Below are positions 3,208 through 62,559 of a DNA stretch of 64,000 nt, piece by piece. Origin of the DNA: an uncultured Acidobacteriaceae bacterium (GTDB lineage Bacteria > Acidobacteriota > Terriglobia > Terriglobales > Acidobacteriaceae); NCBI GenBank assembly GCA_963782105.1, contig CAWAII010000013.1, positions 139,042 to 203,041 of the forward strand, given 5' to 3'. Positions within the stretch are counted from its first letter, which is position 1. Every line of letters begins with the position of its first letter. A program made the position numbers and the translations under genes. The notes beneath the pieces are model-generated. The model searched no databases, had not been told where the DNA came from, and was given only the letters and a program-made list of their open reading frames with translations.

Positions 3208-4257
3208 CTAGCTATGGGGCAGCATTTTCACCGTGACGTTGAACAGACGGTACTTGGTATAGAGGTGCATTTCGCCCAGCAACTGGTCTTCCTGCCGCCA
3301 AGTCAACTCCACTTGCTTAGGCAGCCACAAAGGCTGGGTCAGTTCCGATATCCGCACTTCGCTGAAGAGCAGAACCGACCTCATCCGCTGCAGCGAAATG
3401 CTGGGCAGCGGTGCCAGCAAATCAGTCTCCAAGCGCATAATGCGAAAGGTCGCCTCATCGATCCACGCGATGCCCTGGTAAAGCAGTGGGTAAGCGTTTG
3501 CGCCAAGAGTAATCTCAGCAGGAACTTTCACGCGGCCGGGCAGCTGCGCGAAAGCCACCACGTAGGCGTCATGCCCGTTCATCTTCTGGTGGCCCAGAAA
3601 ACGATAGCGCGACTGAGGAATGTTTTCCGGGAGAAACAACAACCACAAGTATCCAAACCCTATGCCGTGCACAATCGTTGGCTCTCGCTTCGACCGCCCG
3701 CCATTCAGCGCCTTGATGTCGGATCGCGACTCCTCCAGCATCGGAGTACCCTCCGGTGATTGACGAGACAGCATCAAGTAATCGAAATCCTTCCACGGCG
3801 CTCCCGCTAACAGAGTGGTGTGCAGCTTCTCCTCAAGCTGTCTTTCGTCCATGGTGTATTGGGCGGTGGACCTGCTTCGGCCCAGGAAGGTAACGCCGTC
3901 TTGATTGCCATCCTTGGGCACGGGCGGCACCGTAAATTGCACCTGCGATACACTCTCCCGCGCCGCAAGGGAAGGCATCTTCGGCAGCAGAGCCCCCATC
4001 ACCTCACCCGTCCGGCTGAGGACCGATTCGAGACTCGATTGGCTCGCATCGGCCCTCAGTCCATCGAGCGCAGGCACTGCGTGTTTCAATTCAGGCAGCG
4101 GAGCATCCATATAAGGCTTGGCATGCGCGTAGATCTCGTCAATGGCCTCCGCGCTCTTGTTTCCAGCAATCCCGGGGCTCTCCGTCTGCGCACCGGCACT
4201 GGTGAACGTGAGCACAACGCCTAGCAGCAAAGCGAAGCCAGTTCGAGGCAGCCTCAT
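3208..4257 (-). CDS. hypothetical secreted protein
   Basis: Intact 349-codon ORF with signal peptide MRLPRTGFALLLGVVLTFTSAGAQ. Composition is protein-like. I recognise no domain. Confidence 0.5.
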   Translation of the reverse strand: MRLPRTGFALLLGVVLTFTSAGAQTESPGIAGNKSAEAIDEIYAHAKPYMDAPLPELKHAVPALDGLRADASQSSLESVLSRTGEVMGALLPKMPSLAARESVSQVQFTVPPVPKDGNQDGVTFLGRSRSTAQYTMDERQLEEKLHTTLLAGAPWKDFDYLMLSRQSPEGTPMLEESRSDIKALNGGRSKREPTIVHGIGFGYLWLLFLPENIPQSRYRFLGHQKMNGHDAYVVAFAQLPGRVKVPAEITLGANAYPLLYQGIAWIDEATFRIMRLETDLLAPLPSISLQRMRSVLLFSEVRISELTQPLWLPKQVELTWRQEDQLLGEMHLYTKYRLFNVTVKMLPHS

Positions 4258-6131: not shown

Positions 6132-6164
6132 TCGAAGGTAGAAAACTGGGTTGTTCATCTTGCT

Positions 6165-6195
6165 GCGATTCCCCAGACAATGTCTGGGGAATCGC
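6165..6195 (+). terminator. long perfect hairpin downstream of the lactonase gene (terminator-like, no U tract)
   Basis: GCGATTCCCCAGACA-A-TGTCTGGGGAATCGC has 15-nt perfectly complementary arms and lies 34 nt after the stop at 6131. There is no T run after it. Confidence 0.4.
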
Positions 6196-6325
6196 GGGCT
6201 CTGAGGGTAAGGCTCCGGGGGGAGGGTGATCCGTGCGCCTAGCCTCCTAGGAGGTTTCGTGTTTATGGATGGTATAATATTCCTTTCCGTATAAAATACG
6301 CTGAAGAATAATATACTATTCCACC

Positions 6326-9882: not shown

Positions 9883-11667
9883 TCAACGGCGGACCATCTG
9901 CCGGCCGCCGCCCTTCTTAGCCGCCCGCTTCGCGGCGATTTCCCGCATTTGCTTCCCCATGCCGGTGCGGTTCATCACCGCCTGCTGGATCACGTTGATC
10001 ACGTTGCCGAAGGCCCAGTAAAGCGCCAGCCCGGAACTCAGATTCCAGGTCATGAAACCGAAGAAGACCGGCATGGTATAGGCCATCATCTTCTGCTGCG
10101 CAGGGTCCATGCCCGGCGATGGCGTCAGGTATTGCACCAGGAACATGGTCACGATGAAAAAGATGGGCAATATGTGCAACGGGTCGGGAGCGGCCAGGTT
10201 GTGCAGCCACAGCCAAGGCGCCTGGCGCAGTTCGATGGTGTTCAGCAGCATGCGATAGAACGCGTACAGCAATGGCCACTGCACCAGCATCGGCAGGCAG
10301 CCGCCAAACATGTTCACGCCCTCACGCTTCTGCAGATCGAACATCTCTTTGTTCATGTCCGCGCGGCGCGGGTCGGTGGTCTTGTACTTCTTGAACTTCT
10401 CCTTGATCGCGTTCATCTCCGGCTGGATGCGCTGCATCTTCAGCGCGGACTTCATCATCTGGATGCGTGTCGGCAGCATAGCCAGGTTAATCACCAGGGT
10501 CAGAACCAGAATGGCCCAGCCCCAGTTGGAAACAATATGCTCATGGATCCAGCGCAGCGCCAGGAAAAGCGGCTTGGCAATAATGCCCAGATAGCTGCCG
10601 AAGTTCACCACCGCTTCGAGATTGGGCCCGGTCTGTCCCCCATTCTCCGTGGCACGTACGGAAGCCAACACGTCCAGCACCTTGGGACCGACGAACATGC
10701 GCAAGCTGGTGTACCCCGAGGTACTTCCCATGGCAGCGCCCAATACCGAGGCCGAGTCGGTCTGGTCCGTCTTGCCATGACGCGGTATGTCGATCGCATC
10801 ATGCAGACCCACAAGTAGCGTCTGCGGCGGCGCGTCGGGAAGAAAAATCGCGGCAAAGTACAGATCGCTCACACCAGCCCATTCAAAAGGCCCGGGCAGA
10901 GTGCCGCCGCCTGCAATCTTCTTCGCCGCCTGGCGATCGTCCTTGCCGCCCTGCATGGTGTCGAACTGCGACTGCGCATAATCCGGCAGCGTCTCCTGGT
11001 CGCCGAATCCGCCGGGCCATGACACCAGCGCCGTGACCGGGCTGCCGTTTTGGCTGGCCGTCAGCTCCACATGGAGCACGTAGCTGGAATCGAAGGTAAA
11101 GACCTTCTTCACCTCGAGGCCGCCATTGGAGTAGGTAAAGGTAAGCGTGGCAGGAGCATTCAACCTGCCTGTTGCCGATGGCACGTACAACGCCTGCGCC
11201 AGCCGGCTGCGCAGATCCGCATCATAGGTCCAAAGCGACAGCGGAAACCCGAACTTTGCCGCTGCCTTCTGGTTGACCAGGTCCAGCGGTTTACCAGCGT
11301 CGTCCTTGTACTTCTTCAGAATCCAGGAGACGGCCTGGCCCCCGCGATTGGAAAATGTAATCCGATACAGCTCGTTCTCCACCACCGTGGTACTCTCGCC
11401 CGCGGCTACCACCGCGGCCGCAGCAGCCTTGGCGGAAACCGGGCCCGGAGCCACAGCGGCCGCAGGAGTAACAGGCGCAGGAGTAACAGCCGCCTTAGGC
11501 GCCGACTGCGATGCCACCTCGGCTGGGGTCTCCGGTTGCGTCTTTTTCTTTGGCCCAAAGTACTGTAAGCCGAGAAAGATCAGAACAAAGACGACGGAGA
11601 AGATCAGAAGCGTGCGTGAGTCCTGCCCACCACCACCCGGCTGATTAGGGTTTTTTATTTCGGCCAA
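9883..11667 (-). CDS. yidC: membrane protein insertase YidC
   Basis: Intact 594-codon ORF with an N-terminal TM segment, a large periplasmic domain and a C-terminal 60-kDa-IMP core (KMQRIQPEMNAIKEKFKKYK, GCLPMLVQWPLLYAFY). Confidence 0.9.
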   Translation of the reverse strand: MAEIKNPNQPGGGGQDSRTLLIFSVVFVLIFLGLQYFGPKKKTQPETPAEVASQSAPKAAVTPAPVTPAAAVAPGPVSAKAAAAAVVAAGESTTVVENELYRITFSNRGGQAVSWILKKYKDDAGKPLDLVNQKAAAKFGFPLSLWTYDADLRSRLAQALYVPSATGRLNAPATLTFTYSNGGLEVKKVFTFDSSYVLHVELTASQNGSPVTALVSWPGGFGDQETLPDYAQSQFDTMQGGKDDRQAAKKIAGGGTLPGPFEWAGVSDLYFAAIFLPDAPPQTLLVGLHDAIDIPRHGKTDQTDSASVLGAAMGSTSGYTSLRMFVGPKVLDVLASVRATENGGQTGPNLEAVVNFGSYLGIIAKPLFLALRWIHEHIVSNWGWAILVLTLVINLAMLPTRIQMMKSALKMQRIQPEMNAIKEKFKKYKTTDPRRADMNKEMFDLQKREGVNMFGGCLPMLVQWPLLYAFYRMLLNTIELRQAPWLWLHNLAAPDPLHILPIFFIVTMFLVQYLTPSPGMDPAQQKMMAYTMPVFFGFMTWNLSSGLALYWAFGNVINVIQQAVMNRTGMGKQMREIAAKRAAKKGGGRQMVRR

Positions 11668-11732
11668 GAAGAGTTCCTGTCGATCGGACGGTCTTGCAGC
11701 TCCCGGCGCCCGATGCGCCTATAGCCACAATT

Positions 11733-12014
11733 CTATGGTAAATGGCGGGGGTCATCTGTGCGGAGGCGATGGCGGGAGCGGCTGCGTGGCGGGGGCCGGC
11801 CCGGAACCGGATCGAAACCGCCCCGGCCAAGGGGGTTACAGCGCAGCAGCCGCCAAAACGCGAGAGCGCTGCCATAAAGCACCCCGTGGCGGGCCACGGC
11901 TACCATGGCGTATTCCGAACAGGTCGGCTGAAAGCGGCACGCACCCGAGACCCCGCTGACGGAATGCAACAGCGGCGAGATCCAGCGCCGGTAGGCGTTA
12001 GGGATTTGAGCCAT
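11733..12014 (-). CDS. yidD: membrane protein insertion efficiency factor YidD
   Basis: Hallmark sequence [39 protein letters not shown]. It overlaps the rnpA 3' end, as is typical. Confidence 0.8.
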
Positions 12015-12372
12015 CAGCACCCACGCTCCGGCTTTCCGCCGGCCTTCTCGACGACAGCAAAGATCCTGCGAAACCTCGCTCTGCAATCCGCGCGAAATCC
12101 GCCGTCAGCACCGTGCGCCGGGGATGCAGCACCACGTCGACGTCTCGCGTCAGCAAGGCCAGGTTTAGCCGTACGGCTTCGCGCATGCGCCGTTTAATGC
12201 GGTTGCGCTCGACCGCCTTACCCAGAACGCGGCCAGCGGTCAGGCCCACCCGCGGACCGGTGGGAGGATTCGACGTCCGCTCGGCGAAGAAATATGTCAT
12301 GGAAGCGGAGAAATGTTTGCGGCTCCGCTGGTAGACGCGTTGATAGTCAGCGTGTTTGCGCAGCCGCGGGCG
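11998..12372 (-). CDS. rnpA: ribonuclease P protein component (5' end uncertain)
   Basis: Core sequence [26 protein letters not shown]. The conserved N-terminal [11 protein letters not shown] lies upstream of the first ATG (12300), in the same frame. That frame is closed by TAG at 12373-12375, and GTG 12411 lies in frame beyond it. No canonical start covers the conserved N-terminus. Confidence 0.7.
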
Positions 12373-12423
12373 CTATCGGGTGCGCGTCGCACCGGAGAAT
12401 TCCCGGGTCACCCGAAACTGCTT

Positions 12424-12579
12424 CTAGTCGCGGTAGCCGGCGCTTACCGAAACGCGTTTGCGCCCTTTGGCGCGGCGGCGGGAAAGAACCGCGGCCCCCG
12501 CCTTAGTTTTCATACGCGTAAAAAAGCCGTGCGTCTTCGCGCGATGACGGCGGTTGGGTTGGAATGTGCGCTTGGGCAT
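12424..12579 (-). CDS. rpmH: 50S ribosomal protein L34
   Basis: Absent from the ORF track because it is under 60 aa. The reverse strand reads [51 protein letters not shown], directly upstream of rnpA. Confidence 0.9.
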
Positions 12580-12620
12580 AAAACTGCGCTCCTGATCTCA
12601 TTCAAAAATATCTGCTTTAA

Positions 12621-12710
12621 GCGGTTTCAATTACCGTGGCCTGATAAATATCGCGCGGTATGTTTTCCCGGAGAACCACGAAAGCCACCGTCACATCTAT
12701 GTAGAACGCT
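12621..12710 (+). repeat. intergenic repeat family, copy A (5' two-thirds; 3' block diverged)
   Basis: GCGGTTTCAATTACCGTGGCCTGATAAATATCGCGCGGTATGTTTTCCCGGAGAACCACGAAAGCCAC aligns base for base with copy D (61686..). The internal hairpin is GTTTT/AGAAC. Confidence 0.6.
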
Positions 12711-13068
12711 CAGGGCAGCCTTGAGTATACCGGATTCAAAGCAAGCGCAAAGTACGTAACCAGTCACAGCCCCGGAATTGCCACCTTTCACTACGCATGG
12801 TGCAACTCCGCGAAAGAAAGAAATGTTTGCCTGGAATGAGCAGTTGCACGGCCTTGCAACTGTGCTAGTATCGGCTCCGATCAAGAATGATTTTCTGCAC
12901 GTCAACACTACCTGAACTTTCGATCAGGATACTTTCGCGAAGGGGCTCGTTTCCCCCAAAGCAGTTCCTAAGCAAGGAGCGACAACGGCGCGCAAATTTC
13001 ATCTTGCGAGCCGGCTCTTTTGCATTTTGCGGAAAGTATCAGGCAGTCGGCGTTGAACGAAGGAAGCT

Positions 13069-14486
13069 ATGTCTTTTGTCGCCACCGCCCCCGCCGTACC
13101 CAATCCCTGGGTGCGGATCCTGGGTGCTCTAGAAAAGAAGGTCAACCGGCAATCCTTCGATACCTGGCTAAAGCCCACGCGCTTCAGCCACGTGACCGGC
13201 CGGATGCTCTTCGTGCGGGTTCCTACACCGGAGTTCCAGCACATCGGCGATCGCTATGGCGACCTGATTCAAGAAGCGATCGATGCTTTCCATCTGGAGT
13301 TCGATGACGTCTCCTTCGTCATCCCGCAGGAAGACCCAGCCGCCGTCCGGGTCCGCCAGGATGGAGGGTTTGCGCCCATGCCCTCGCACGGCTCCGGGGC
13401 CCCGCGCCCCGGCAGCCGCCCGGCGCCAACACGCCCCCGCAACAGGCCAAGTTTGACTGGACCACAGCCGCGCAACTCAACCCCCGCTACACTTTTGAGG
13501 CCTTCGTCATCGGCAACGGCAATCAGTTCGCCCGCGCTGCCTCGGAAGCAGTCGCCGAACACCCCTCAAAAGCCTACAACCCGCTCTTCATCTATGGTGG
13601 TGTGGGTATGGGTAAGACCCATCTCATGCACGCCATCGGCCATGAGGTAAAAAAGCGCCAGCCGCAATGCTCCGTCTGCTATGTCTCCAGCGAGAAATTC
13701 ACCAACGAAATGATCAACTCGCTGCGCTATGACAAGATGACCAGCTTTCGCGACAAGTTTCGCTGCGTCGATCTGCTGCTTATCGACGACATCCAGTTCC
13801 TGGCGCAAAAGGAGCGCACCCAGGAAGAGTTCTTCCACACCTTCAACGCGCTCCACGAGAGCATGAAGCAGATTGTCATCGCCTCCGATCGTCCACCTAA
13901 GGAGCTGCCTGAGATCGAGGACCGCCTGCGCAGCCGGTTCGAGTGGGGCTTGATCGCGGATATTCAGCCGCCCGACCTGGAGACCAAGGTCGCTATTCTG
14001 CAGAAGAAGGCTGAGAGCGAGCACGTCCTGCTGCCCACCGACATTGCCCTCTTCATCGCCTCCAACGTCCGCACCAATGTGCGCGAACTGGAGGGCGCCA
14101 TGGTGCGCCTGCTGGCCTGGTGCCGCCTCAATGGCGCCGAGCTAACCCTGGCCACCACTCAGCTCTGCCTCAAGCAGTTCATCGATACCCAGGTGCGCAA
14201 GATCACCATCGAAGCGATTCAGCGCATCGTCTCCGAGCAGTTCGGCATGCGGGTCGCCGAGCTCAAGCAGAAAAACAATTCGCGCTCGGTGGTCGTCCCG
14301 CGCCAGATTGCCATGTATCTGGCCAAGCAGATGACCGAGGCTTCTCTCCCTGAGATCGGACGGCAGTTCGGCGGCAAGCACCATACCACCGTCATGCATT
14401 CCATTGCCAAGATCGATGAGCAACGCCGAGCCGACAAAGATCTGAACCGGACCATCAATAAGCTCCTGGAGACCCTCAACGGCTGA
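13069..14486 (+). pseudogene. dnaA: chromosomal replication initiator DnaA, one frameshift (about 13390-13440)
   Basis: Domain I lies in the 13069 frame. [23 protein letters not shown], Walker [11 protein letters not shown], Walker [10 protein letters not shown] and the C-terminal DNA-binding domain ([11 protein letters not shown]) lie in the 13602..14486 frame. The junction falls in a stretch of G/C runs. Confidence 0.9.
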
Positions 14487-35751: not shown

Positions 35752-36645
35752 CTAGGGGGCGGGAGCCAAGAGGGCCGATGCCGCAGAGCCGATGACCCCG
35801 ATCTCGCTGTTCTCCGGTACAATCTCCAACCCGTAGCTCTGCAGGGGGCTCATCTTGACCATCTGCCACAAGTACTCCTTGAGCAGATTCAGATCGAGGA
35901 ACCGGACGTTGATGCCGGTGTAGTAGAAGCGGCCCGGCCCGCCCAAATGGATCGAGGTGGCGGTAGCGGCGCCCAGGCCGCGATGCCAGAGCCTCACGAA
36001 GTCCATGCAGCGGGCGTCGCCTTTCTTGGCCGCGGCAAAAATCTCCTCCGGTTCCATGTCGAGGAAGCGCAGGCGCATCGCACGGTGCCCCATGATTCCT
36101 TCCAGGTGTCCTCGCCCGCCGCATCCGCAGTAGGTTTCTTTGTGATCGAGCGTGACCACCATGTGACCGCCCTCCCACACGCCTTCGACGTAAGGATAGC
36201 GGCCGAATCCAATCCCGTTGCCCAGCGTCCAAACCCGCACCAGGCGATCCGTGCGGCCATGGGTCACCGCTAGCCCTGCCGCCACGGCATCGGCGTCATT
36301 CATGGTCTTGATCGGTGCGTGGATGCCCTGCGACTGGAAGATGGCAGCCAGCGATTCTGCGATGTTCCCACCCTTCAGTTGAGCCAGGTTAGGCGAGTCC
36401 TGCACGATGCCGCCGCGAATAATGCCGGGGATGGCGACGCCGATGGCATCGATTTTGCCCTGCGGGTGAATCGCCATCACCTGATCGCAGATCAGGCGGC
36501 AAAGGCTGTCGAAGGGATGATCCAGCAGAGCTTCATGATCGTCCGGATTCTCTGGGAAAGTGTGCAGCGATCCGACCAGCTTGTGATCTTCGATGAGCCC
36601 CGCGACAATTCGTGAGGACACGACAACGCCAATGGTCCTATCCAT
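35752..36645 (-). CDS. ROK-family sugar kinase (glucokinase-like)
   Basis: Intact 297-codon ORF with ROK signatures NDADAVAAG and a CGCGGRGHLE zinc motif. Confidence 0.8.
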   Translation of the reverse strand: MDRTIGVVVSSRIVAGLIEDHKLVGSLHTFPENPDDHEALLDHPFDSLCRLICDQVMAIHPQGKIDAIGVAIPGIIRGGIVQDSPNLAQLKGGNIAESLAAIFQSQGIHAPIKTMNDADAVAAGLAVTHGRTDRLVRVWTLGNGIGFGRYPYVEGVWEGGHMVVTLDHKETYCGCGGRGHLEGIMGHRAMRLRFLDMEPEEIFAAAKKGDARCMDFVRLWHRGLGAATATSIHLGGPGRFYYTGINVRFLDLNLLKEYLWQMVKMSPLQSYGLEIVPENSEIGVIGSAASALLAPAP

Positions 36646-36662
36646 CAGACCCTTTCTTTAAA

Positions 36663-36771
36663 ACAGTTTCACAGTTACTGTTGCCTCATAAAGATCGCGA
36701 GGTGTGGTTTTCTTTGGGGGAAAACCACGTAAATCTCATTGCCTTCGGTCTACACCCTACTGTGAAACTGC
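36663..36771 (+). repeat. intergenic repeat family, copy B (complete)
   Basis: Terminal stem CAGTTTCACAGT (36664-36675) / ACTGTGAAACTG (36759-36770), 12 of 12 bp. Internal hairpin GTGGTTTTC (36704-36712) / GAAAACCAC (36720-36728). Core blocks are TCGCGAGGTGTG, CCACGTAA and GCCTTCGGTCTACACC. It fills the sthA-ROK spacer and abuts the sthA stop. Confidence 0.75.
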
Positions 36772-38169
36772 TTAATCCGCTGCCCGGGCCAGGCGGTTAA
36801 TGCCGTTGAAGGCTGCAGCCTTATAGCACTCGGCAAGGGTGGGGTAATTGAACACCGTATCGATGAAGTAGTCCAGTGTGCCGCCGAGCACCATGACCGC
36901 CTGCCCGATGTGCAGCAGTTCGCTGGCGCCTTCTCCGATGATGTGCACGCCCAGCAAATGGCGTGTTTCGCGGTGAAAGACGATCTTCAGGCGTCCCGTG
37001 GTATCGCCGCGGATCTGCCCGCGAGCAATCTCGCGGTAGTAGGCGACGCCCACCTCATAAGGCACATCTTCATCGGTGAGCTGCTCCTCGGTCTTGCCGA
37101 TAAACGAGATCTCCGGGATGGTATAGATGCCGTAGGGATAGTAGCTGGGATTGGACACCAGGTTCTCGTTGCCGAAGGCGCGCGCGACGGCGATACGGCC
37201 CTGCTCCATCGACACCGAGGCCAGGCTGGGAAAGCCGATCACGTCTCCCACCGCGAAGATGCCCGGCACCTTGGTGCGGAAGTCCTTGTCCACCGGGATG
37301 CGGCCGCGAGAATCCGCCTCGATGCCAACCCCAGCCAGGTTGAGTTCGTCGACATTGCCGGCGCGGCCGACCGCATACAACAAGGCCCCCCCGGAAATTC
37401 TTTTTTTGCTTTCCAGGTTGGCGACTACACTACAATCCGGCAGCTCTTCCACGCTTTCCACCTCTTCGTTCAGGCGCATGGTCACGCGGCTGTCGCGCAG
37501 GTGGTAGCTGAGCGCCTCGACGATCTCCTGATCGGCAAACTCCAGCAGCTTTGGCCGCTTTTCGATCAGAGTAACGCGAACGCCGAGCGCGGCGAACATG
37601 CAGGTGTACTCGACGCCGATGACGCCGCCGCCCACCACGATCAGCGTCTTGGGCAGTTTGGGCAGGTCCAGGATCTGGTCACTGTTGACAATGGTGCGGC
37701 CGTTGGTGGGCACCCTGGGAGAGTCGGCCGGCTTGGTGCCGGTGGCGATGATGATGTTCTTCGCCTCGTAGACTGTCGTGCCTGTCTCATTGGTCACTTT
37801 CACATGGGTGGCTGTCTTCAAAGCTGGCCACCCCGGCGAGCACGTCGATGCCATTGCGCGAAAGCTGGGCCTCGGTCACATCAATCTCGGTCTTGATCAC
37901 GTGCTGGACCCGGAACGCAAGGTCCGCCATCGTGATCTTTTCCTTCACCCGATAGTTCATGCCGTAGATCGAACGGTAGTTATAGCCGGAGAGATGCAGA
38001 ACGGCTTCGCGCATCGTCTTGCTGGGAATGGTGCCGGTATTGACCGAGACCCCACCAACGTTCGCATCTTCTCCACCACAGCGACTCGCTTGCCCAGCTT
38101 GTTGGCGTAGATCGCGGCTCGCTGTCCGGCCGGGCCGGAACCAATGATGATCAGATCGTAGGTAATCAT
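36772..38169 (-). pseudogene. sthA: soluble pyridine nucleotide transhydrogenase (SthA-like flavoprotein), at least 2 frameshifts (about 38060 and about 37810-37850)
   Basis: [15 protein letters not shown], then [19 protein letters not shown] (no redox Cys pair, as in SthA) in a second frame, then VVGGGVIGVEY..AVGDV and the dimerisation domain in 36772..37854. Confidence 0.8.
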
Positions 38170-44437: not shown

Positions 44438-44615
44438 TCAGTCCCGAGAGAGACGGCTAAACGGCCCAGGACTTAGTCCTGGGTTGCGATCGGAATAGTA
44501 CGACAGGGAGGCTGAAAGCTGCCGAGGACGACGTCAGCCGTCCTGCGGGACTGATCGTCTCAAATCCACCCAGGACGACGTCCTGGGCTAAGTTCAGCCG
44601 TCCCTTCGGGACTGA
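44438..44615. repeat. REP-like palindromic repeat cluster (two inverted ~47-nt units plus a central partial unit)
   Basis: Unit 44438-44484 (TCAGTCCCGAGAGAGACGGCTAAACGGCCCAGGACTTAGTCCTGGGT) is the near reverse complement of 44568-44615. Each unit contains the hairpins CCCAGGAC-nnn-GTCCTGGG and GTCCC-nnn-GGGAC. A third half-unit lies at 44524-44555. Confidence 0.65.
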
Positions 44616-60758: not shown

Positions 60759-61104
60759 ATGGCTGACGAAACCAGCACGCCCAGCGCACCAACACGTCCC
60801 GGCCCGAGGGTTCCGGGCCCTCCTCTTCAGGCCCCGGCGGACGCCCTCCGGCGGACGCCCCAGCGGTCCTGGCGGCGGCGGCCGCAAGTTCTTCCGCCGC
60901 AAGAAGGTCTGCAAGTTCTGTGTCGAGAAGATCGATGCCATTCACTATCGCGATGTGCGTCTGCTGCAGCAGTTTGTCGCCGAGCGCGGCAAGATTGTGC
61001 CCCGCCGCCTGACCGGCGTCTGCACCACGCATCAGCGTGGGCTGGCGCGTGCCATCAAGCAGGCCCGCAACATCGCTTTGCTGCCCTTCGCCGCCCGCTA
61101 TTAA
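60759..61104 (+). pseudogene. rpsR: 30S ribosomal protein S18, frameshift in the G/P/R-rich N-terminal extension
   Basis: ATG 60759 ([11 protein letters not shown]) is out of frame with the conserved body [62 protein letters not shown]. Confidence 0.85.
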
Positions 61105-61105
61105 A

Positions 61106-61207
61106 GCATTCGCATTCTGTGGCTATCAAGGTCGCGAGGTGCGTCTTCCGCGGAAGAAATGCCACGCAAGGCGAGTGGCTCTCGGTATACACCAGAGCGA
61201 AACTCGC
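61106..61207 (+). repeat. intergenic repeat family, copy C (complete, shorter arms)
   Basis: It starts 2 nt after the rpsR stop and ends 23 nt before the rplI ATG. Core blocks are TCGCGAGGTGCG, CCACGCAA and GGCTCTCGGTATACACC. Internal hairpin TCTTC-CGCG-GAAGA. Terminal stem TTCGC(AT)TCTG / CAGAGCGAA. Confidence 0.7.
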
Positions 61208-61229
61208 TACAGCGATCAGGAGATTGGTC

Positions 61230-61684
61230 ATGGAAGTCATTCTGAAGGAAGACGTCAACAACCTCGGCCATCGCGGCGATGTGGTGAAGGTGGCCGACGG
61301 CTACGGCCGGAATTTTCTGCTGCCGAAGAAGCTCGCCATGGAAGCCACGGCCGCCAACAAGGCGGTGATCGAGCAGATGAAGCAGTCCGCTGTCCGCCAT
61401 TCCGCGCGCGAGAAATCCGAGGCCGAGTCGCTGGTCGCCCAGCTCGATCAGGTCGAGCTTGCTTTCGAGCGCAAGGTGGGCGAGAACGATCATCTCTTCG
61501 GTTCGGTCACCTCGGGCGAGATCGCGCAGCAGCTCGAGCAGGAGGGCTTCACCATCGACCGCCGCAAGATCCAGTTGGACGAGCCGCTGCGCCAGCTGGG
61601 CGAATTTCACGTGCCGGTCAAGCTGCATCGCGAAGTGACCGCGCACGTCAAGGTCACGTCAAGGCGGAAGAAGCCGAGGCATAG
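61230..61684 (+). pseudogene. rplI: 50S ribosomal protein L9, frameshift near 3' end (about 61650)
   Basis: MEVILKEDVNNLGHRGDVVKVADGYGRNFLLPKKLA, with AGGAG at 61218-61222. The natural tail VKAEEAEA* is in the neighbouring frame. Confidence 0.85.
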
Positions 61685-61685
61685 A

Positions 61686-61796
61686 GCGGTTTCGCAATTA
61701 CAGTGGTCTCAGAAAAGGCTCGCGGGAGTGCGTTCTTCCGTTGGGGAGAACCACGAAAAGCCACTTGGCTTCGGTCTACACCAATTGCGGAACCGC
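61686..61796 (+). repeat. intergenic repeat family, copy D (complete)
   Basis: It starts 2 nt after the rplI stop. Terminal stem GCGGTTTCGCAATT (61686-61699) / AATTGCGGAACCGC (61783-61796), 14 bp including one G-U. Internal hairpin GTG(C)GTTCT / AGAACCAC. Core blocks are TCGCGGGAGTGCG, CCACGAAA and GGCTTCGGTCTACACC. Confidence 0.75.
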
Positions 61797-61806
61797 TATA
61801 GCGGCG

Positions 61807-62559
61807 TCAGCGTCCGTAGCTTAGCCGCATGGCCAACTGGTCGGGAAGCCCGGCACGCATGATGCGCATCTGCGCCAGGCGGAAGTCATAGGGCACGCGG
61901 TGGAATTCGACGATCATCCGCTGATCGTCATAAAGCGCAAAGGCGGCGCGGCGATCATGGTCCCGGGGCTGGCCCACCGAACCGGGATTGATCAGGTAGC
62001 GCGCGCCCGGGACCAGGACCAGTTCCGACACATCCCGCTCATCGTCATTCGAGTAGACCGGGTCCAGCTTGAACCAGTCTTCGCCATTGGTCGCAAAACC
62101 GCCCTGCAGATGCGTATGACCAAAGAAGTTGATCCGCGTTTCCGCCTGCTTCAGCGGTAGTTGCGCATCGCGCACGGAGAGCAGGTATTCATCTTCGTCG
62201 ACATACGATCCGTGCATGCAACTCACCTGGGGACCATCCGGCGTAATCGGTCCGCGCGCCATATGCTGCAGCCAGTCCACGTGCTCCGGAGTGAGCACCT
62301 GCCGGGTCCAGCGCGCGGCGCGGCTGGCCACCGGGTTGAAGTCCTCAAGTGAAAGCTGCCCGCTGCAAGCGCGGTCGTGATTTCCCCGGACAAAGATCTC
62401 GCCCAGGCCGCGCACGCATTCGATGACTTCGTTCGGCGCCGCCCCATAGCCCACCACGTCGCCCAGATTCCAGACCAGGTCGTGCTCCGGCGCGGCATCG
62501 AGCACGGCGTCGAGCGCATCGATGTTGGCGTGGATATCGGAAATGAGTAGAGCGCGCAT
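61807..62559 (-). CDS. metallophosphoesterase family protein
   Basis: MRALLISDIHAN, NLGDVVGYG, GNHD and FGHTH are calcineurin-like phosphoesterase motifs. Intact. Confidence 0.75.
   Translation of the reverse strand: MRALLISDIHANIDALDAVLDAAPEHDLVWNLGDVVGYGAAPNEVIECVRGLGEIFVRGNHDRACSGQLSLEDFNPVASRAARWTRQVLTPEHVDWLQHMARGPITPDGPQVSCMHGSYVDEDEYLLSVRDAQLPLKQAETRINFFGHTHLQGGFATNGEDWFKLDPVYSNDDERDVSELVLVPGARYLINPGSVGQPRDHDRRAAFALYDDQRMIVEFHRVPYDFRLAQMRIMRAGLPDQLAMRLSYGR

Follow-up and report, generated by a model that had tools for sequence, protein, structure and literature searches.

The question raised by this locus is whether a short intergenic sequence, whose two helices stay paired while their letters change, is a structured RNA or an element of some other kind. 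An earlier note on the window, by which we mean the whole 64,000-nucleotide stretch of Acidobacteriaceae DNA that was analyzed, listed four related copies (A to D), all on the plus strand, and left their nature between a transcribed repeat and a small structured RNA. The Acidobacteriaceae carry these elements in abundance, and our studies indicate that they are very probably MITEs (non-autonomous DNA transposons) of a family or superfamily not named before. All four copies were found at the listed places and on the listed strand, but their true extents run from TA to TA and so differ from the limits first drawn. Their positions and parts are as follows:

12620..12716, plus strand: copy A, in the rpmH-dnaA spacer, with a TA at 12618-12619; decayed. 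The 5′ arm (AGCGGTTTCAATTAC), TCGCGCGGTATG, a shortened internal palindrome and CCACGAAA remain, and the 3′ block and 3′ arm are eroded.
36659..36774, plus strand: copy B with its TA duplication (TA 36659-60 and 36773-74); the element itself is 36661-36772.
36661-36675 and 36759-36773: arms of copy B.
36704-36712 and 36720-36728: internal palindrome of copy B, GTGGTTTTC / GAAAACCAC.
36772-74, minus strand: stop codon (TTA) of an sthA-like gene neighboring copy B; the start of a ROK kinase, the other neighbor, is at 36645.
61102..61209, plus strand: copy C with its TA duplication (TA 61102-03 and 61208-09); the element itself is 61104-61207, a divergent member with arms of its own (AAGCATTCGC / GCGAAACTCGC).
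61144-49 and 61152-57: internal palindrome of copy C, TCTTCC / GGAAGA, again its own.
61102-03: left TA of copy C, inside the rpsR stop codon TAA.
61682..61800, plus strand: copy D, the one originally flagged, with its TA duplication (TA 61682-83 and 61799-800); the element itself is 61684-61798, 115 nt.
61684-61699 and 61783-61797: arms of copy D, GAGCGGTTTCGCAATT and AATTGCGGAACCGCT.
61732-39 and 61744-51: internal palindrome of copy D, GTTCTTCC / GGGAGAAC.
61682-83: left TA of copy D, within the ancestral rplI stop codon TAG.

A covariance model built from 119 relatives was run on the window with filters off, and it scored copy B at 120.8 bits, D at 96.5, C at 42.1 and A at 30.4 (E-values from 2.6e-29 to 2.3e-5); copy C reached 55.3 bits in a second model run. 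Many positions of copy A (E 2.3e-5) are unpaired in the model. This copy had been taken for a partial one; it is instead a full insertion whose 3′ half has decayed, and it is not truncated. The three conserved blocks of the earlier note, written as one pattern (CGCGNG-N14-34-CCACGNAA-N8-20-TCGGTNTACACC), have B, C and D as their only matches in the 64 kb; shuffled sequence gives an expectation of 0.00. Both helices pair in the copies as the earlier note had described. When folding was compared with shuffles, strong z scores were obtained for B (-5.1) and D (-6.08, at -52.7 kcal/mol) and a moderate one for C (-2.9), while A (-0.31) folds no better than shuffled sequence. After A to D, the next-best model match was an unrelated plain hairpin at 6158-6202 (20.9 bits). 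This is a perfect 14-bp hairpin, GCGATTCCCCAGAC-AAT-GTCTGGGGAATCGC, which scores through its stem alone, without the element interior, and is probably an ordinary terminator-like hairpin. We also note that copy A lies in a region (9883-14486) with yidC, rnpA and rpmH on the minus strand and dnaA on the plus strand, which is likely the replication-origin region; the change in GC skew there is weak.

Copies B, C and D measure 104-115 bp between their TAs, and the family consensus is ~115 bp. The element has no ORF of its own, only short ORFs that read out of it. Its ends are terminal inverted repeats of 16-19 bp with the consensus GAGCAGTTTCGCAATT ... AATTGCGAAACTGCTC, and one palindrome of 9-10 bp (GTGGTTTTC ... 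GAAAACCAC) lies inside; read from TA to TA, the consensus is TA GAGCAGTTTCGCAATT ACTGTGGCCTGATAAAGATCGCGAGGTGTGGTTTTCCTTGGGAGAAAACCACGAAAAGGCCTnTCGCTTCGGTCTACACC AATTGCGAAACTGCTC TA(G). The junctions carry fixed motifs: TAC follows the left arm, GT precedes the palindrome and TACACC precedes the right arm. At least four subfamilies with unrelated arm sequences share this one architecture of arms, palindrome with a YTTGRG-like loop and junction motifs, and they coexist within one genome, locus L028 alone carrying three. The subfamilies are distinguished as follows:

Subfamily 1: arms GCAGTTTCGCAATT, with the variants CGGAATT, TTAACAATT and CACAGTT; palindrome GTGGTTTTC or a GC-rich version, GTGGTCCCGG.
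Subfamily 2: arms GCATTTTCACTTC; palindrome GCGGCTTTTC.
Subfamily 3: arms GCATTTTTGCTAAT; palindrome GCGGCCATTC.
Subfamily 4: arms CCCGGATTTCCTG; palindrome GCGGCTTTC.

Two of these features were counted against the MITE reading. Plain recognition of the ends by a transposase does not require an architecture that is shared across subfamilies, and the TA flanks of subfamily 4, with its GC-rich CCCGGATTTCCTG arms, are not obvious. Some copies are unusual in other ways. Those at L030:5135-5294 and L044:2386-2551 hold an extra GC-rich hairpin of ~40 nt inside the loop of the internal palindrome, which may be a nested small element. Clusters of copies occur at L030:7055-7289, L103:3118-3508, L028:439-740 and L085:2851-3265; in L030 two copies stand head to tail and appear to share one TA, and in L103 three copies of different subfamilies lie within 400 nt.

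The family is by no means confined to the window. The block pattern was scanned over one genome per prokaryotic species and gave at least 119 loci. Among the matches listed, 114 came from Acidobacteriaceae metagenome-assembled genomes; the other five (Actinomycetota, Streptosporangiaceae, Clostridia, Latescibacteria and Thermoleophilia) do not align and were set aside as chance matches. Profile searches of the ~1 Mb of fetched loci found 142 non-overlapping copies, and then 174 with a broader profile, of which ~55 lie beyond those that the pattern had selected. The further copies that the earlier note proposed to look for in relatives are therefore plentiful. Density is ~60 copies per Mb by both estimates (four in the 64-kb window, and the ~55 additional copies in the ~1 Mb of fetched loci), which would amount to about a few hundred copies per genome, or roughly 0.7% of the genome. 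Searches of the PLSDB plasmids and of the IMG/VR viral contigs gave no match to the family. At gathering thresholds, Rfam models matched the whole window only at a tRNA and at Acido-Lenti-1, both away from the elements, and nothing matched the elements in the C-D region (61080-61830) even at E<=10. The earlier note could not place the elements in a named family and had mentioned Acido-Lenti-1 as a motif to check; the former agrees with the silence of Rfam, and the Acido-Lenti-1 motif lies elsewhere in the window, at 44569-44613 on the plus strand (49.7 bits, gathering score 37). A sequence similar to this match was seen by eye in an intergenic insert of L096 (~3560-3640), and the Acido-Lenti-1 motif may itself be repeat-borne. 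A full-text literature search found no description of this repeat family, which is apparently undescribed; the kind of selfish DNA to which it belongs is well known, and the family does not represent a new RNA gene.

The evidence that carries the MITE reading comes from comparing filled and empty sites. At L105:2118-2237 the filled site reads ...CCCT TA(element)TA GCGCGAGCC... and the orthologous site in L006 reads ...CCCT TA CCGCCCAGCC...; over a longer stretch, ...CTCTCCCT TA (CAGCGG...CCGCTT) TA GCGCGAGCCGGCCACCG in L105 corresponds to ...CTCTCCCT TA CCGCCCAGCCCCACCG in L006. The copy at L012:239-355 behaves in the same way, with a single TA at the empty site in L040. For the window copies, the rpsR-rplI and sthA-ROK regions of relatives were fetched by means of the L9 and SthA proteins. 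The site of copy D is gaggcaTA(element)TAgcggcgt in the window and empty in L123, where it reads gaggcg TA gcggcga (gaggcgTAgcggcga). The site of copy B is gat TA (element) TA aagaaagggtctg ATG in the window and empty in L129, as gac TA aaggaaaagacgc ATG. This empty spacer is 12 nt long in the relatives L129, L127 and L130 (gacTAaaggaaaagacgcATG in L129); in L127 and L130, both of which lack the element, sthA ends in TGA. L128 carries a copy at the same site as B. Copy C, which in the window is TA (104 nt) TA in the stop codon, is likewise missing from its site in L123 and L125 (rpsR TAG, 11 nt, rplI ATG) and in L124 and L126 (spacer of 26-27 nt). The check for target duplications and empty sites suggested by the earlier note has thus yielded single-TA empty sites for the B, D, L105 and L012 copies, together with an empty C site. 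The elements are mobile, and they duplicate TA when they insert.

Flank statistics on 86 copies anchored on their inner arms describe the target more fully. The 5′ flank has T in 77 of the 86 and A in 74, and is preceded by a pyrimidine in 80; the 3′ flank has T in 58 and A in 68, followed by a purine in 60. Longer target duplications (YTA, TAR or YTAR) were considered and rejected, as the relevant flank positions show no association. Taken together, the small size, the lack of an ORF, the inverted ends, the target duplication, the many copies and the insertion polymorphism identify these elements as MITEs. One comparison was not clean: in place of the element at L069:2073-2189, L011:4274-4300 has an unrelated 25-nt stretch (TGAAGAACCGTTATCATCAAGGG), which could be an excision footprint or plain divergence of the spacer.

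The position of the copies relative to genes follows from the same target. Placement was judged from the coding frames in the element flanks. Next to the element's 5′ side a gene ends in 46 cases and begins in 22; for the 3′ side the numbers are 36 and 28. The flanking genes are convergent in 14 cases and divergent in one. An ORF of at least 80 codons ends in frame at the terminal TAR triplet for 24 of 57 5′ ends and 16 of 40 3′ ends, so that ~40% of these triplets end a flanking gene; in control frames the value is 9-11%. The element starts with a purine in 83 of 86 copies and ends with a pyrimidine in 62 of 86. When the TA of a TAA or TAG stop is the target, a TAR triplet is therefore restored, whichever strand the gene is on. 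Insertions into stop codons are harmless in this way, and copies pile up at the 3′ ends of genes. This also explains why complete copies begin 1-2 nt from a stop codon, as had been noticed in the window, although the TAG at copy D is out of frame there.

The single orientation that the earlier note reported, irrespective of gene direction, did not hold outside the window. Elsewhere both orientations occur, without bias relative to the genes (13 co-directional copies and 8 anti-directional), and at the orthologous sites L110/L035 and L060/L025 the two copies belong to different subfamilies and point in opposite directions. These are independent insertions at the same TA. Relative to GC skew the counts are 72 and 55 (p=0.16), a comparison of low power since the skew is weak. 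The uniform plus orientation in the window is a small-sample accident.

Covariation was measured on 30 diverse copies that were aligned without reference to structure. Within the helices 87% of cells are paired, and a shift of the partner by 1-3 columns lowers this to 37-50%. Of the 25 pairs, 20 vary at both of their positions, and the observed covariation score was reached by none of 500 shuffles. The terminal arms contribute 16 paired positions (86% paired), of which 13 change on both sides in the 30 copies. The compensatory changes reported from the four window copies are thus real and persist in a larger alignment. The earlier note had read them as selection on a folded RNA or DNA hairpin, and for an RNA no strand-specific signal emerged. 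Covariation lies mainly between subfamilies, and it therefore indicates that the ends must match each other and that the internal palindrome must stay a palindrome; it does not indicate selection on an RNA locus by locus. Mismatches in the arms comprise 59 G·U and 53 A·C, and those in the palindrome 7 G·U and 18 A·C. RNAalifold on 23 representatives gave the same consensus fold on both strands (-29.8 and -31.0 kcal/mol) and no shared helix beyond the arms and the palindrome; on a MAFFT alignment of 119 copies its consensus was poor owing to the placement of gaps. The earlier note's terminal stem consists of the inverted ends of a TA-duplicating DNA transposon, and its internal hairpin is the palindrome of that transposon; its option of a small structured RNA is not supported.

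Several additional pairings were tried and rejected. A hairpin GGYCU...AGRUC upstream of the CGCGAGG block, a long-range AGAUCG/CGGUCU pairing, a GGUGU/ACACC pseudoknot and a GCGA/UCGC pairing were each lost once divergent subfamilies were added, and mutual information was dominated by subfamily structure. A self-cleaving ribozyme, suggested by eye from a hammerhead-like CUGAUAA ... GAAA, has the wrong spacing, and Rfam is silent on it.

Comparison of relatives shows turnover alongside two well-conserved orthologous pairs. Most insertions are not common to genomes whose flanks are 80-90% identical. Relatives with an L9 that is 88-94% identical lack copies C and D. Copy B is shared with L128 alone, the closest relative, whose SthA is 97% identical over 93% of the query; in that genome the GC-rich version stands in place of the distal palindrome, and little of the 3′ block survives. 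This turnover, together with the half-eroded copy A, fits neutral decay of dead copies. Against the MITE reading we counted the orthologous pairs L090/L078 and L105/L006, which lie in the same orientation and are more conserved than neutral decay predicts: they differ at 3 of 238 element nucleotides (98-99% identical), and in their flanks identity is only 84-92%, even at the very edge of the element. This may be due to re-insertion, to conversion between copies or to selection on some copies that were retained.

The alternative that survives best keeps the elements mobile and gives the shared fold, which would then be more than a remnant of a parental insertion sequence, a function, either in an unrecognized, structure-guided route of mobilization or through domestication of long-retained copies, for example as an mRNA 3′-end or RNase III element. 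Domestication would explain why the two pairs are 98-99% identical between flanks of 84-92%, and these pairs are the main reason for keeping the reading, which we nevertheless regard as unlikely. A structured RNA family proper would comprise cis-acting 3′-UTR or intergenic elements, or small RNA genes, whose helices are kept by selection on the transcript and whose copies arise by duplication or by hitch-hiking on a mobile element. The compensatory changes in both helices, the strong folds of B and D, the single-stranded motifs fixed across subfamilies (GT before the hairpin and TACACC before the 3′ arm), the two well-conserved orthologous copies and the many copies in transcribed 3′ regions all speak for such a family. 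However, Rfam has no match for it even at E<=10, and orientation relative to the flanking genes is unbiased (46 and 36; 13 and 8) and reversed at two orthologous sites. G·U mismatches are not in excess over A·C, and the reverse strand folds equally well with no further conserved helix. Copies are also present in some close relatives and missing from others, with a clean TA duplication, the L128 ortholog of B has lost most of its 3′ block, and copy A is half decayed, all of which makes an RNA family quite improbable. Least probable of all, and only barely credible, is a hairpin mobilized as single-stranded DNA by an HUH (Y1) enzyme of the REPIN/RAYT or IS200/IS605 PATE type, which would recognize structure instead of sequence and would thereby explain arms that drift in both helices and stay paired, and which gains from the very high copy number, the preference for gene 3′ ends and the lack of a DDE partner in the fetched loci, but which is opposed by the TA duplication (HUH elements such as IS200/IS605 make no target duplication), by ends that pair with each other without separate subterminal hairpins, by an alignment with no GTAG or CGTC head, by the orientation relative to GC skew (72 and 55, p=0.16, at low power) and by the occurrence of both orientations at one site. 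REP/REPIN and IS200/IS605 PATEs themselves were ruled out by the TA duplication and the lack of strand bias.

For these MITEs we infer both the family of the transposase and the reason for which the palindrome is conserved. A transposase supplied in trans would bind both ends, cut the element out and paste it into a TA in a loose YTAR context, which would duplicate the TA. The candidate enzyme would be of the IS630/Tc1-mariner type or of the IS5/IS427 group; these assignments are suggested by the TA duplication, the YTAR context and general traits of those families. IS630 prefers CTAG, which the YTAR context resembles, and the leading GAG of the element ends would presumably also fit the IS5 family (IS427/IS1031 groups). 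Searches of the ~1 Mb of fetched loci turned up no autonomous element whose ends match, a fuzzy search for solo or widely spaced ends returned only more small copies, and the partial copies in L105 and L093 have no adjoining transposase. When the 1,418 ORFs with 180 aa or more were compared all against all by blastp, no repeated transposase-like protein was recovered. A hint of the parent comes from subfamily 4 (e.g., L036:6492-6611, L035:6100-6217 and L065:120-238), in which the palindrome is followed directly by GAGGAAA-N-ATG, the GAGGAAA being Shine-Dalgarno-like, and by an ORF that starts with MKF(A/I)NATKLHRKSG and leaves through the right arm into the flank (8-102 codons). Based on this outward ORF, the interior may be the left end of a parental insertion sequence, with a translation-control hairpin and the start of the transposase gene. 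Such an origin may explain the shared architecture without any function in the MITE.

Among known systems, the closest are the Correia elements and RUP, both TA-duplicating MITEs of ~100-150 bp near genes. The earlier note had likened the window copies to ERIC, BOX and Correia repeats, and a dispersed intergenic repeat family is indeed what we find. The Correia elements of Neisseria (CREE/NEMIS) are ~100-155 bp long, without an ORF, with inverted ends and a duplicated TA; hundreds of copies lie near or abut genes and are co-transcribed into a long double-stranded RNA stem, and their transposase partner is not clearly known. Their sequence is unrelated, their host belongs to another phylum and their ends are ~26 bp with promoter-like boxes and a central IHF site, whereas the Acidobacteriaceae family has ends of 16-19 bp, a conserved internal palindrome and several subfamilies with unrelated arms. 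RUP of Streptococcus pneumoniae and other MITEs of the IS630/Tc1-mariner group are similar in length (~107 bp), inverted ends, TA target and duplication, multiple subtypes and mobilization in trans. RUP, however, has a parent with matching ends, IS630-Spn1, and no such parent was found for the Acidobacteriaceae family in the ~1 Mb of loci. ERIC/IRU and BOX are looser analogues, being short imperfect palindromes in transcribed intergenic DNA with many copies in both orientations. Their sequences are unrelated, BOX is modular (boxA, boxB, boxC), and the TA duplication and empty sites demonstrated here set the Acidobacteriaceae family apart from them. REP/REPIN-RAYT systems also consist of high-copy extragenic hairpins at gene 3′ ends, a population that evolves as a hairpin. 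In contrast to the Acidobacteriaceae family, which duplicates TA and has a non-palindromic interior of ~80 nt, REPs span 20-40 bp, have a GTAG or CGTC head and insert without duplicating their target.

The family does not change the understanding of how MITEs work and is only modestly surprising; its use lies in annotation and strain typing. Hardly any non-coding DNA has been annotated in the Acidobacteriaceae, which rank among the most abundant bacteria of soil. Repeats that sit in stop codons at ~60 copies per Mb will confuse gene callers, create false conserved intergenic motifs in screens for RNAs and may contribute to assembly breaks. A model of the family makes masking possible, and the turnover of insertions between close relatives offers strain-level markers. 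The ends that regenerate a stop codon also illustrate how an element that targets TA can build up a high copy number in a GC-rich genome without doing harm.

The genes beside the window copies show some irregularities of their own. Near 61657 the window rplI is one base short (GTCACGTCAAGG, against GTCACCGTCAAGG in all relatives). The missing base places the TAG at 61682-84 out of frame, so that the rplI ORF (61230-61862) reads through copy D and ends at 61862, giving a protein of 210 aa (P0001) where relatives have 148-151 aa. The missing base is probably an indel of the long-read assembly; if the frameshift were real, the MITE would encode a 59-aa tail on L9. The sthA-like gene (36772-38169, minus strand) is split as well, into a 360-aa ORF and a 70-aa N-terminal ORF, where homologues have ~465 aa, and this second frameshift suggests indel errors in the assembly.

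The spacers around rplI carry further inserts in relatives. In L120:1399-1500, L121:1392-1500 and L122:1399-1500 the rpsR-rplI spacer holds a different conserved insert of ~100 nt (gcattgatgccg...gagcagcctcgccggcggtt), which has no match to the MITE models and represents either a leader or a further repeat family. Downstream of rplI, where the window carries copy D, lies an insertion hotspot: long, unrelated perfect palindromes occur there in L124:1954-2275 and L126:1954-2122, and L123 has a copy of subfamily 4 on the opposite strand in this region (L123:2004-2122).
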